64,000 nt of DNA from Eledone cirrhosa (lineage: Eukaryota), in assembly GCA_964016885.1 (NCBI GenBank), contig OZ024741.1, positions 67,332,001-67,396,000 on the forward strand. Reading direction: 5' to 3'. The notes beneath the pieces were generated by a model. It was given only the letters and a program-made list of their open reading frames with translations. It ran no database searches and had not been told where the DNA came from. Below are positions 44,758 through 53,635 of the stretch, in pieces (the stretch's first letter is position 1; each line of letters starts with the position of its first letter). Both the position numbers and the translations under genes were made by a program.

Positions 44758-44955
44758 ATATGAAAGGATTCATCACCCCGACTACTGAGCTCAAGCCCTT
44801 TCGATAGCTAGAACCTAAATAGTTCGGAGCTAGCTGTCGAAACGGCCGGAGCTCAGCCGTCGGGATCCTGAATCCTTTCATATTATCCACTCTACTATCC
44901 CAAGTACTCTGATGTGTTATGGTCTAACTGGTATCTTACCACATCCTATTTGTTA
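44758..44955 (+). mobile_element. Fold-back element family C, diverged copy
   Basis: Imperfect palindrome 44758-44883 plus a tail homologous to 53557-53635. Confidence 0.75.
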
Positions 44956-45100
44956 TACACACACACACACACACATATATATATATATATATATATATAT
45001 ATATATATATATATATATATATATATATATATATATATATATATATATACATATATATATATATATATATATATATATATATATATATATATATATATAT

Positions 45101-45305
45101 ATAACGAAGGAAATGTGGTAAGGAACCAGGTGGACCATAACGCACCAAAGTACTGAATACTTAGGGTAGTAGAGTGGGTAATAGGAACAAGTAAGACCCC
45201 GACGGCTGAGCTCAAGCCGTTTCGACGGCTAATTCTGGACTGAATGTCCAGAATTAGCCGTCGAAACGGCTTGAGCTCAGCCGTCGGGGTCTTACTTGTT
45301 CCTAT
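45101..45305 (-). mobile_element. Fold-back element family C (60-bp perfect arms, 5-nt spacer, ~80-bp tail) in (TA)n
   Basis: Arms at 45181-45240 and 45246-45305. Confidence 0.85.
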
Positions 45306-48300
45306 ATATATATATATATATATATATATATATATATATATATATATATATATATATATATATATATATATAAGTATATATCCACATATAGAAATGTATA
45401 TATATATATATATATATATATGTGTGTGTGTGTGTGTGTGTGTGTGTGTGTGTGTGTGTGTGTGTGTCTGTGTGCGTGTGTGCATATATATATATAGAGA
45501 GAGAGAGAAGGAGAGATAGAGAGAGAAAGAGGGGGGAGAGGGAGAGAGAAAAAGCTATTAAATTAGCGGCGGTGTTTTTGCTTTGGTTGATGTATACGAA
45601 CATCATTCATTGAATATTTTGTAAATTATGTTTTCAGTAAGATATTAAACCAATGGCATTGTCAGACCCTTTCAAAATTGTGTTGTGCTACTGATGGTCG
45701 GCATCATTCCGTTCAAGCTGCTACATATCGATGATTGCAGTAATGCCATGTACATGGTTGTAAATTCCAGTGTAATTTTGTGATGAAGGATCTGTCTGTG
45801 GTTTCTACGGGACGAAGTTGATGTTACATAGCCTAGTGATTTATATGGGACTTTTGCTTTGAATACACATTACGGTAGAGAGACGAGCAATGACGATTAT
45901 TAGACAAAATCTATATGGAGCTCACAGGTTTTATTGCGGTACAGAGAGAGACAGATTTCCGAGACATTATGTCTGTGATCCAAAATTTAGAGCGTGTCTC
46001 TTTACAATGTCATTCCGATCAATCAGATGTCTTCTATTTCTTTGTATTCTCTGCTATTTAAACAACAGCAGCACAATGTGGTAGTGTTACGCAAATGTGT
46101 CTGTAATTGTAATGTAGGTGGTTAATAATTGTTGGGAACTTAAATATTTTCTAGAAATAAAAGGGAAAGGAGAATGTTTGAAGATACTGGTTTTAGTAAC
46201 TCGTAAAATTCTCATCTTGTATATTATACCTATGATAAAATGTAATATAACTGTGACATTTCTGTTCTCCTTTTAGCAAGTATATGTGGAAGCAATCTAA
46301 TATGTTCTTTCTTTGTTTAAAATTGAGCAATTTGAATACGATTTAGATCTGAAGGTGAGCGAAAGACACCTGGAACTGACTTTGTTGTGTGAAACAACAG
46401 AATGACTAGTATACAAAATCTTATATTAGTGAATGTAGGCCCATCCTGTTTCAGACATAAGACCAAACGAAGGCGAATTTCTGTGATCATGGCTTATGTA
46501 TCAACTCTGAAATATGATGTGGCTTTTCTGAGATGATTGTGCATCTGTTGCATAGGTTGTTCCTACAGTTTAACTTCATGACCTTTGTGATGTATGCAAT
46601 AAAAATCAAATATTCTGAGATAGTTATCATGAATATTTCCAATATCTGGCATTCGTGTCGCCAAGAGTTATGGTTGGGGTTCTTTACAGGAAATGGAACC
46701 GGAAGTTTTTGCGGATTGGATACTAAATCCTTAAGAAAAACTAGTGTCACCCTAAATAATGGAACCAGCTGGATGTTGTTACTATGCCCGCAGAAACATA
46801 ACTGCGATATCTTAAATTCTCGAATGCATCGCATTGCAGAATGAAATACGGACCTCAATGTGGTAATGAAATCTATGACATTACAACAAAAGCCAAACCA
46901 TTGTTTCCTTGCCGAAGAAGCAATCAACCAAGGTAGATATATAAAACACAACCGTATGTAAGATCCAAGAACCTACTGCAAAATCTGAATATACATACAT
47001 ACATGCATACATACACACAAAAATACACACACTTGTATATATATATATATATATATATAATTCAAGAAAGATTGACATGGTTCGCTATACAATAAGGCTG
47101 ACAATTGTTTCTTTGATCTGGCAGGTCTAGAGTTCGCTATACGCCTGATTTTGCGCCAATCAATCTCCAATACTTTGTTTATAACCAGTCTTTTTCATCG
47201 GATCGGGTGAAATGAAGAAAATACATAAGGCATGGTTTTTTTTATATAAGTGTGGTATTAAACCATAATATCAATAATAAAATAAAATAAAAAAAAACAG
47301 ATAGCATACAATTAAATTAATAACATCAATGTAAGTAAGAGATAGAGTATAATGGATAATCTAGCGTGTTAAACAGACTGATATGATACAGATGTGAAAT
47401 GACATGTGAAAACTGCTATGTCTTCAAAGTTACATCTATGTATGCACGCATGTAAGTATGCTGTACAGTATATATATATATATATATATATATATATACA
47501 TATATATATATATATATATATATATATATATATATATATATATATATATATATATATATATATATATATACACATATATATATATACATATATATATACA
47601 TATATATATATATATATATATATATATATATATATATATATATATATATATATATATATATGTGTGTGTGTGTGTGTGTGTGTGTGTGTGTGTGTGTGTG
47701 TGTGTGTGTACATATATATATATAGATATATAGATATATATATATGTATATATATATATATATATATGTACACACACACACACACACACACATATATATA
47801 TATATATACCTGTACACCATACTTACAACTTACATGCGTGCATACATAGATGTCATTTTGAAGACACATCCACATATTCGCCAAAGTTTTGCCTATCATT
47901 ATATTAACTCAACCACCCACACGTCTTCAAATCTAATAATTCCAGTATGTAATTTCTATAAGTTTATGACTCATTATCTCCATATATAATACTGCATATA
48001 TAATACTTATTCCACCTCCTTTCATTGCATGCATATATTTGTGATCGTTGCATGAATAATGTGTGAAGATTGAACATTGATGTTGTGTAAATAGCATGCA
48101 CAGATCTGGAAAATGAATAGAATATAAGAAGAAAAACAAAACAAAAAAAAAACAAGAAAGAATATCGAAAAGTTTGCGATGGCTCCAAGTAAAACACCTT
48201 GACATCTAGAAATTAGAAATCAGTTACATAGTCGTATTGATATTGCGAAAATAGTAGAGAATTTTCCGTACATTTTCTATTGTTCGATCTAAAGTGATAA

Positions 48301-48571
48301 AAGGATACATAATTAACTTGGTTAAATGCGTGTATATTTTAGTTTAGTAACGCGATGTGGTCTTTTTCTTGTTCTTGTTATTGTAGTTTTCTGTTAATTT
48401 ATGTCCTTATGATTTCTACCCCTAAATACATGCAAGCCTATACATTCAGCCACTCATCCATATATATATATATATATATATATATATATATATATATATA
48501 TATATATATACATGTGTGCTTGTTTGTGCAAGTGTGTGTGTGTATGTGTGTATAATATATATATATATATA

Positions 48572-48940
48572 TTTTAATTAAACATATGGTATATTTCCAA
48601 ATATACTATACATACATTCATGTATACATCGCTATTTCAGAGCACCAATCCTAATACCTATATTTTGCTGGACCGACAATCGCTCTGTATAATAAGCTCC
48701 TGATTATTACTGGAATTCTATAAGAATCCAGCTTCTATAATTTTCGGCGAAAGCAGGGGTGTACGTGACTCTGATGAACGCCAACCAGCGTGAAACAGAC
48801 TGTCAGCTTCTCTCCCTTCCTTCACCGAAAAGAAGTAAGTGACATAGTCACCACTTTAAAACTGATAGCGTATGGTCTTCTAAATGTTTTTAATTAAACA
48901 TACGGTATATTGCCAAATATACTATACATACATTCATATA
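48572..48940 (+). mobile_element. Retrozyme-like element family A, copy 2 (~316-bp unit plus ~50-bp redundancy)
   Basis: 48572-48620 repeats from 48888. Contains an internal HHR. (TA)n flanks. Confidence 0.8.
48741..48831 (+). ncRNA. Type I hammerhead ribozyme, canonical core
   Basis: CTGATGA(48771)-ACGC(caacca)GCGT-GAAA-CAG(a)CTG-TC-ag. Distal stem TTTTCGG/CCGAAAA. Confidence 0.85.
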
Positions 48941-51980: not shown

Positions 51981-52310
51981 TTGATTGGCAATATTGGTAC
52001 GGCTGGGGAATTCAAAAAAAGATGGTACGTTCACAGACACTCTATGAAGAACCGTAAACGAGAGAACTCAACAACGCTGGCCAATAAAATCTGGCAGCTT
52101 AAGAACACAAACCAGGAATATAGGATTAGCTGGTCGCAATTATCGGGAGCAAGGGCCTACAGCAATGGAATGTCCCACTGCGGACTTTGCAATAATGAGC
52201 TATTTCATATTTTAAAGTACGATAACATGTTGCTTAACAGCAAAATAGAAAGATCAATTTTCTGTAGTCACAAAGCAGCTACCAAGTTCACAAATTTCAA
52301 ACTAACATGA
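51981..52310 (+). pseudogene. Penelope-like GIY-YIG endonuclease C-terminal fragment
   Basis: IGTAGEFKKRWYVHRHS...STTLANKIW.LK...Y.ISW...CGLCNNE...LLNSKIE...CSH; no upstream RT. Confidence 0.78.
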
Positions 52311-52925
52311 TTCGACTCAACAATCTCAAAATTCGAGCTGAACCACCCGGATTTTAATGTAGGGAATACATACCACTACACTGTTATTAGCTGTCAACTG
52401 ACCGACTGGGCACTAGATCAACATCATAAATCTCCTAACCTTTCTTTCACCCTCTCTCCCTAAAGCCACATCAACACCATTAAGATAAGACAATCAGCAC
52501 GCTAAACATTTACCACACACACATATCAAAACCCCCCTTCCCCGTCCTTAGCCCTATCCCTTATGTCTCATCCTCGTATCTCTCACTTAATTTTTAATTT
52601 ATTGTTTTTTATCTTTTATCTGTCATTTGTTACTACCTCTTATTCCCTACTTCTAACACTTTGACCACCACGTATGTATGTATATATCTAATGTCGTTTT
52701 CCACATCTTTATACATACACTTACTCACCCAAAGCATAACAATATCGGTTTCAACACACGTTTTCAGATAAAGAATCTTGCTAAACAAATTCAGAAACGA
52801 AATATATATATATATATATACACTTATGAATGCATGTGTGTATGTGTGTATATGTGAAATGTCAACGAGTATAAACAATACAAGAGAACAATACAGTGCA
52901 ATGTTGATGTATAGTAGGAAAAGAG

Positions 52926-52958
52926 TTTAACGTTTCGGTTGTTAGTCCTTCATCAGAA
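52926..52958 (-). ncRNA. Minimal type I hammerhead motif (Penelope pLTR type)
   Basis: tt-CTGATGA-aGG(actaacaa)CC-GAAA-CG-TT-aa; short stem I. Confidence 0.62.
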
Positions 52959-53414
52959 GGTAGAATGAGAAAAAATAGAAAGATAGACGAGAATAAGAAG
53001 AGGAAACAACGCAAATATTATGTTTTTATAGAGGGGGAGGGGCTGCATATACGTGTTTAGTCAGCCATTTTAGTGAAATGCGGCTCAAAGTGTTTCTTGG
53101 ATATAAGAGAATATTTTAAAAAGTCGATAATTATTGTATATTTTGTGTTAATGTGTATGTATATATGTGTGAGTGTGGTTGTTTGTCTATGCAAAGCTAT
53201 CAGTGTAGGATGATCTGATGTTCAACAGACAGTGACACTACTGGTGGGGCTTTTGGAAGGTTAAAGTGTGCATGTGGAGGCGCACTCGATTTCACCAACC
53301 GAAAGAGTGACAAAGGTTGATAGGTTAGGTAGATGTGTTGACGTAAATGTGTGTGTGTATTTATTAACACACACATACATATATATATATATATATATAT
53401 ATATATATATATAT

Positions 53415-53635
53415 ATAGGAACCAGTAAGACCCCGACAGCTGAGCTCAAGCCGTTTCGACGGCTAATTCTGGACTAAAAAAATTATTTTTTTTTTAGTCC
53501 AGAATTAGCCGTCGAAACGGCTTGAGCTCAGCTGTCGGGGTCTTACTGGTTCCTATTACCCACTCTACTACCTCAAGTATTGAGTACTTTGGTGCGTTAT
53601 GGTCCACCTGGTTCCTTACCACATTTCCTTCGTTA
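53415..53635 (+). mobile_element. Fold-back element family C in (TA)n
   Basis: Arms 53415-53474 and 53497-53556 around an A/T spacer. The tail matches 45101-45180 in reverse. Confidence 0.85.

Follow-up and report, generated by a model that had tools for sequence, protein, structure and literature searches.

A short head-to-head repeat family in (TA)n of Eledone cirrhosa resembles half a hammerhead and is probably a Penelope-like passenger

Insertions of Penelope-like elements (PLEs) carry an inverted copy adjoining the 5′ end and, optionally, a tail of 30–40 bp on one side only, according to those parts of the published accounts that we draw on here and below (PMC8557442, PMC3846280). A preference for (TA)n targets is stated for Naiads, and the origin of PLE inverted repeats and one-sided tails is acknowledged there as an open question (PMC8557442). 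A PLE protein, predicted to form a dimer, cleaves and extends both target strands at AT-rich DNA, with two RNA start sites bounding the tail, and hammerhead cleavage is dispensable for its insertion in vitro (PMC11167929). Non-autonomous PLE derivatives have been described (PMC8557442, PMC7229834, bioRxiv 10.64898/2026.07.22.740005), and octopus Penelope families are listed, with no structure given in the part of that source used here (PMC13282606). Here we describe family C, a short repeat in a 64-kb window of the octopod Eledone cirrhosa (the whole stretch of DNA analysed: assembly GCA_964016885.1, contig OZ024741.1, 67,332,001–67,396,000, forward strand; all positions are window-relative). 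Family C copies are real insertions, what is known of PLE behaviour accounts for most of their odd shape, and the family is very probably a non-autonomous PLE passenger.

BLAST places three family C copies in the window, C at 44758–44956, B at 45101–45305 and A at 53415–53636, with no fourth copy found in the 64 kb. The surrounding sequence is animal-type DNA, rich in (TA)n, with remnants of LINEs (long interspersed nuclear elements) as well as repeats resembling short interspersed nuclear elements (SINEs); the flanks of the copies mark the insertion target as AT-rich or microsatellite, (TA)n. All three copies share one layout, in which a full unit, made of a 60-nt arm and a 73–80-nt tail, stands head-to-head with an inverted arm that lacks the tail. 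The full unit of copy A (53497–53636, plus strand) has its arm at 53497–53556 (60 nt) and its tail at 53557–53636 (80 nt), ending in (TA)n; a 22-nt A/T spacer at 53475–53496, with A7 on one side and T10 on the other, precedes it, and the inverted tail-less arm (53415–53474, minus strand) matches the long arm with 0 mismatches in 60 and ends with CCTAT in (TA)n. Copy B is built in the opposite orientation, with its full unit on the minus strand (45101–45240; arm 45181–45240, tail 45101–45180), a 5-nt centre (45241–45245) and a tail-less arm on the plus strand (45246–45305) that is likewise identical to its partner at 60 of 60 positions. Copy C belongs to a second subfamily, whose sequence also occurs in loose read ends; its full unit (44821–44956, plus strand) has an arm at 44821–44883 and a 73-nt tail, and after a spacer of about 5–7 nt its decayed inverted arm (44758–44818, minus strand) stops at the same end position (CATAT).

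The initial annotation had described three asymmetric hairpins in (TA)n, each with both arms sharing one sequence variant. All three are indeed present, although the right side of copy C begins with (AC)n and only then runs into (TA)n, and the matching of arms holds for copies A and B but not for copy C, where an alignment of 63 columns contains 12 mismatches and 2 gap columns. The longest perfect inverted matches, 68 nt in copy A and 60 nt in copy B, far exceed the maxima of 18 and 16 nt found in 200 shuffles each, so these inverted repeats lie beyond chance. Copies A and B differ from each other at 2 of 60 arm positions, both of them sites already named in that annotation, and at 3 of 80 tail positions, and their spacers differ as it had stated. 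The inverted copy adjoins the 5′ end in 3/3 window copies, with such joints also present in reads; the end point of the tail-less arm is constant in 3/3; and the tail is one-sided in 3/3, both 3′ ends being abundant in reads. Within copy C (44758–44883), the short arm departs more than the long arm and shows the TT of the other subfamily at two adjacent sites, which could reflect decay, conversion from the neighbouring copy B or the use of two templates.

Reads place these three copies within a far larger family. We aligned four of the 7 listed public runs to copy B at 80% likeness, which gave 21,368 contigs (X1), 25,751 of 12.47 million reads (X5) and 26,481 of 12.79 million reads (X6), together with 214 contigs from a second organism (X4). 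Family C thus accounts for ~0.2% of the restriction-site-associated DNA (RAD) reads of two individuals (X5, X6), implying that it is very abundant, although aligned counts are not a copy number. The unit is ~140 nt long; its 5′ end is fairly fixed, and its 3′ end is fixed at two TA-anchored points 80 nt apart, unit positions 60 and 140. TA-flank depth past the tail-less end and past the tail end was 5,069 vs 10,958 in X5 and 4,745 vs 12,161 in X6, and in X1 the summed contig depth was 679k vs 852k, giving ratios of 0.46, 0.39 and 0.80, respectively, so both 3′ ends are family-wide. RAD read ends pile up at 45234 and 45252, where they fall on AATT, and restriction ends are the simplest explanation for them.

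The same reads show that the differences between copies A and B are ordinary family variants. At the two sites, frequencies in X1 were 35.6% and 22.6% on the left arm and 34.1% and 19.1% on the right arm, values that are not independent because 6,900 contigs fit both arms. In the raw reads of X5, A-type states made up 16.5% and 13.3% on left-arm plus-strand mates and 17.2% and 15.7% on right-arm minus-strand mates, so that variant frequencies are alike on the two classes of RAD reads. Only 3.7% (X5) and 5.2% (X6) of reads were at least 99% like copy B, and with so few near-identical sequences in the family, the matched arms of both copies, A as well as B, are better explained by a shared template than by random draws. 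As these arm differences are common polymorphisms, standing at 13–36% in the family, and the arms of copy C have drifted apart, neither later homogenisation, which had been proposed to explain the matched arms, nor assembly polishing is needed.

The centres of the palindromes, by contrast with the fixed outer ends, are variable. Depth in X1 falls from 832,041 at 45238 to 86,562 at 45248, and in X5 from 1,490 to 260, and loose ends at 45231–45245 carry heterogeneous, A/T-rich sequence with an agreement of 0.40–0.56 (X1). From the 15 of 96 joints and 12 of 83 inserted-letter rows listed, we mapped 18 distinct same-strand joints, leaving out three on opposite strands and one running backward. They show many different break points, with 0–3 nt of overlap or short inserts; in 12/18, one arm starts within 10 nt of the unit 5′ end and the other at varied positions, and in 6/18 both arms are truncated. 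A centre shorter by 7 nt recurs in 15 contigs (summed depth 10,606) and so speaks against the idea that all centres are unique. No single contig piece among those listed spans the whole of copy B; pieces do cross its centre (records 6–8 of the 16 listed, spanning 45149–45283), which places palindromes of this kind outside the assembly as well.

Together, the differing spacers of near-identical copies and the many head-to-head junctions in reads support the proposal that the inverted arm is made anew at each insertion. The turn itself had been placed in stem II of the hammerhead, and here the data argue otherwise: the sole plausible loop II lies 3′ of the turn point and is duplicated on both arms, and the centres of A and B are unlike. 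Also, the 13-nt deletion form that a stem II fold-back predicts was absent among the 12 of 15 indels listed. Matched arms characterise the young copies A and B, and decayed arms the old copy C.

In sequence, family C arms look like the 3′ half of a type I hammerhead, with GAAA, stem III and the NUH cleavage triplet all present. In copy A this half lies at 53511–53539 (plus strand) and comprises GTC, GAAA, stem III with a GAGCTC loop, TC and GGG, with no CUGANGA; from ribozyme geometry, the position equivalent to the cleavage site follows 53536. The initial annotation had read GTC-GAAA-CGGCT..AGCCG-TC-GGG without CTGANGA in each arm, and both the likeness and the absence stand, but the exact motif occurs only in the two arms of copy B. 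Copy A has AGCTG, giving a G-U pair in stem III, the long arm of copy C has CGGCC, and its short arm is degenerate. CTGANGA was absent from both strands of 400–540 nt stretches around each window copy and from the 24 of 802 loose read ends listed, at 30 letters each, so that any hammerhead parent is putative. The 5′ strands of stems I and II amount to at most a TAG/(T,C)TA remnant, and the TAG, 7-nt loop and (T/C)TA inside each arm are possibly what is left of stem II. Loose RAD ends of the second subfamily include a partly conserved upstream stretch ending in GGCTTAG (985 reads in X5 and 970 in X6), whose GGC could extend stem II; being mixed consensuses with an agreement of 0.61–0.76, these are a lead to a longer parent only.

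In the non-satellite 42.6 kb, half-cores with a Watson–Crick stem of at least 5 bp are confined to the two B arms and a single TA-run site with 2 calls; 100 shuffles gave a mean of 0.27. The 29-nt core differs between copies B and C at 2/29 positions compared with 27/105 elsewhere (Fisher p=0.039, for one pair and with boundaries chosen post hoc), and no GAAA position appears among the 40 of 139 variant rows listed. In metagenome and viral contigs, 185 full-core matches also form stems I and II, and 98 of them contain the GTC-GAAA-stem III-TC-GGG motif; none has any other relation to family C (best BLAST E 0.054), full-hammerhead pattern scans (59 and 113 stretches) gave no family C relative, and an exact family C 22-mer scan of metagenome contigs gave 0 matches. 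Rfam returned 0 matches in the window at gathering score, 0 for a single family C unit at E<=10 and, over 42000–57000 at E<=10, no hammerhead among 150 of 221 rows listed, which are hairpin or microsatellite look-alikes. This blank carries little weight, as Rfam also misses a complete minimal hammerhead core next door, where its 4 matches are non-hammerhead. The isolated half folds no better than shuffles (z -0.56), and the favoured fold of the arm is a different hairpin, in which GAAA is buried. A permuted (type II) hammerhead using a one-mismatch CTGATGT in the copy C tail was considered and rejected on inspection, because stems I and II do not pair.

Compared with described systems, family C shares with PLEs that have an inverted pseudo-long terminal repeat (pLTR) and tail the 5′-adjacent inverted copy, the one-sided tail, the (TA)n targets stated for Naiads and hammerhead-related terminal-repeat sequence; unlike them, it has no open reading frame (ORF), its whole insertion is ~200 bp, its tail is 80 nt and only half a hammerhead is present. 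Poseidon of Anolis, PAc, similarly has two discrete 3′ ends, corresponding to two reverse transcription start sites, an AT-rich target and hammerhead cleavage that is dispensable in vitro, but PAc is an autonomous element whose hammerhead is complete and whose tail is short, and it is likened here by layout, not by sequence (PMC11167929). Non-LTR retrozymes are, like family C, short, non-coding and high in copy number, with a type I hammerhead motif and presumed PLE mobilisation (PMC7229834; bioRxiv 10.64898/2026.07.22.740005), yet they form head-to-tail tandem arrays with complete self-cleaving hammerheads and circular RNA, whereas family C consists of dispersed head-to-head pairs with no complete core. 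It is therefore not a retrozyme, nor, with CUGANGA missing 5′ of stem II, a hammerhead ribozyme; nor is it a miniature inverted-repeat transposable element (MITE), as the 80-nt tail lies outside one arm and the inverted repeats do not bound the element. It works like a PLE insertion, its link to an autonomous pLTR being putative. In LINE-1 twin priming, both target ends prime complementary DNA (cDNA) and an inversion results; that process inverts non-overlapping parts of the RNA, whereas family C carries the same 60 nt on both arms.

A reading that accommodates these features starts from a unit probably cut down from a pLTR, leaving only the 3′ half of a type I hammerhead, and mobilised, we infer, by a PLE protein. 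The GIY-YIG endonuclease of such a PLE would nick both strands of the (TA)n target, and reverse transcription would begin from each nick at one of two RNA start sites, one with and one without the tail. Both cDNAs would then extend to the RNA 5′ end and be joined there through a few untemplated or A/T-rich bases, and the arms would match because both were copied from one RNA or one source locus. The two start sites and the cleavage of both strands reported for a PLE (PMC11167929) led us to this two-cDNA model. Granted a PLE passenger, we lean somewhat towards such two-ended priming, and we put the model as a whole, with two cDNAs, one per target end, joined at their ends, at about even odds. 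A neighbouring non-coding family at 48950–49575 (minus strand), of PLE type with a ~330-nt tandem unit in (TA)n, adds support, as it combines a complete minimal hammerhead core (49412–49437, minus strand; that of the second unit is mutated) with the layout of family C: an inverted, 5′-truncated copy (49437–49566), joined through a 4-nt microhomology, and, at just one of its ends, a tail of ~45 nt. It shows that PLE-type insertion operates in this genome.

Several observations weigh against this two-cDNA model. Neither an autonomous partner nor a full-hammerhead parent was found in the window or in the loose read ends listed, and an ORF remnant at 51948–52310 (120 aa) gave only a GIY-YIG-like lead at 0.89, with no Pfam match better than E 0.057 and no longer homologue. 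The family C tail, at 80 nt, exceeds the 30–40 bp reported for PLEs, and a target-site duplication is unreadable within (TA)n. No RNA run was listed as containing the flank at 52960–53380, a blank that is neutral as to an RNA intermediate. Only 10–17% of the depth spans a B-like short centre, so that solo arms may be common, with hairpin dropout and long spacers possibly confounding this drop, and some of the joints may be later palindrome deletions or contig joins. Finally, the spacer of copy A, with A10 on one strand and T7 after a short loop, fits a fold-back equally well.

Such a fold-back is a close rival, though a less probable one: a single cDNA, started from the tail end, would fold back by microhomology on reaching the RNA 5′ end, not in stem II, and copy its own first 60 nt, with either endonuclease cutting or TAT microhomology to the target setting the new end. 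The perfect arm identity in A and B is in keeping with it, as are hairpin-like spacers in A and C, the 12/18 joints with one nearly complete arm and another starting at a variable internal site, and the 4-nt microhomology at the turn in the neighbouring family; the tail of PLEs has, in addition, been ascribed to endonuclease resolution of an intermediate (PMC8557442). Combined with resolution at position 60, it accounts for the same window data as two-ended priming. Yet this fixed end needs an extra cause, several joints have untemplated letters or no overlap, both arms are truncated in the remaining joints, and both-strand extension and two start sites have been demonstrated in vitro for a PLE (PMC11167929). 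That a palindromic master is copied whole, or that gene conversion within the palindrome later evens out its arms, is unlikely. All three window copies are palindromic with both arms near full length, and the shared 7-nt-shorter centre indicates that some centres are common to many loci, but A and B differ at 5/140 unit positions with unrelated centres, and the sequence beyond the 5′ end is heterogeneous. Moreover, their differences are common family states rather than private mutations copied across, and drift at 12 sites in copy C means that conversion is not keeping its arms equal.

We consider it very unlikely that family C is a non-autonomous DNA transposon, MITE-like or Helentron-associated, with a merely coincidental hammerhead likeness. 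Its inverted repeats are long, it targets TA and one of its boundaries has T-runs, all of which would suit such an element, and so would an arm that has no Rfam match and prefers to bury GAAA; against this, the inverted repeats are not terminal, with the tail lying outside one arm, centres and truncations vary as in retro-insertions, the half-core is rare by chance, and between subfamilies the core has changed less than the remainder. Least credible of all is that the palindrome or the identity of its arms was produced by assembly or polishing. Palindromes beside long (TA)n are hard to assemble, and copy B lacks a listed contig piece across its full length, but pieces cross the centre, both variant states are found on each arm class in the raw reads of two further individuals, and the same assembly left the arms of copy C unequal. 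We also rejected an antisense reading, which would give the element a poly(A) tail at its 3′ end, as the TA-anchored ends are the fixed ones.

It is a long shot that the substrate half of the hammerhead is kept under selection, either to be cut in trans by the catalytic half of an autonomous partner or as a docking site for a dimeric PLE protein copying two separate RNAs at a single insertion. The better conservation of the core between subfamilies and the TT in the short arm of copy C hint in this direction. In the first case, a retroelement and its parasite would share one ribozyme that is split in nature.

Other elements of the window were recorded alongside. Minimal hammerhead-like cores lie at 43147–43170 (plus strand) and 52933–52956 (minus strand), related at 80% over 66 nt, and at 48771–48795 (plus strand), in a ~316-nt partial tandem with a relative at 41819–42165. 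Outside the window, viral contigs (L081, L112, L134, L138 and others) contain clusters of 2–3 complete type I hammerheads ~390–480 nt apart. A near-perfect 53-bp palindrome at 56761–56813 occurs only once in the window and is not flanked by TA. A 21-kb tandem array (7–21423) consists of 650 copies of a 33-bp G/T-rich unit with 92% matches, and is followed at 21427–35466 by nested, decayed LINEs, with a reverse transcriptase ORF at 27515–29545 (RVT_1 E 5e-23) and two related endonuclease/reverse transcriptase elements on the minus strand. The SINE-like repeat, presumably akin to a cephalopod SINE, is present in about ten copies (29866–30006, 36619–38978, 50887–50944, 54848–55022).

The layout of family C is a known PLE signature, from which the family departs in its tiny size, its missing catalytic half and its long tail. 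The literature surveyed, mostly abstracts and with Repbase, Dfam, most subscription papers and supplements outside its scope, describes no short head-to-head family that retains half a hammerhead, and family C may already be catalogued. Elements of this kind are likely to have been misfiled as MITEs or SINEs in annotations. At ~200 bp, very abundant and with subfamily-diagnostic sites in both arms, family C is a natural experiment, on a large scale, on the formation of PLE inverted repeats: how often the two arms of one insertion disagree, and what the centres consist of, would distinguish fold-back from two-ended priming on one RNA and from priming on two RNAs. A working ribozyme, the family further suggests, is not required for a PLE passenger to spread widely, which agrees with the dispensability of cleavage in vitro.

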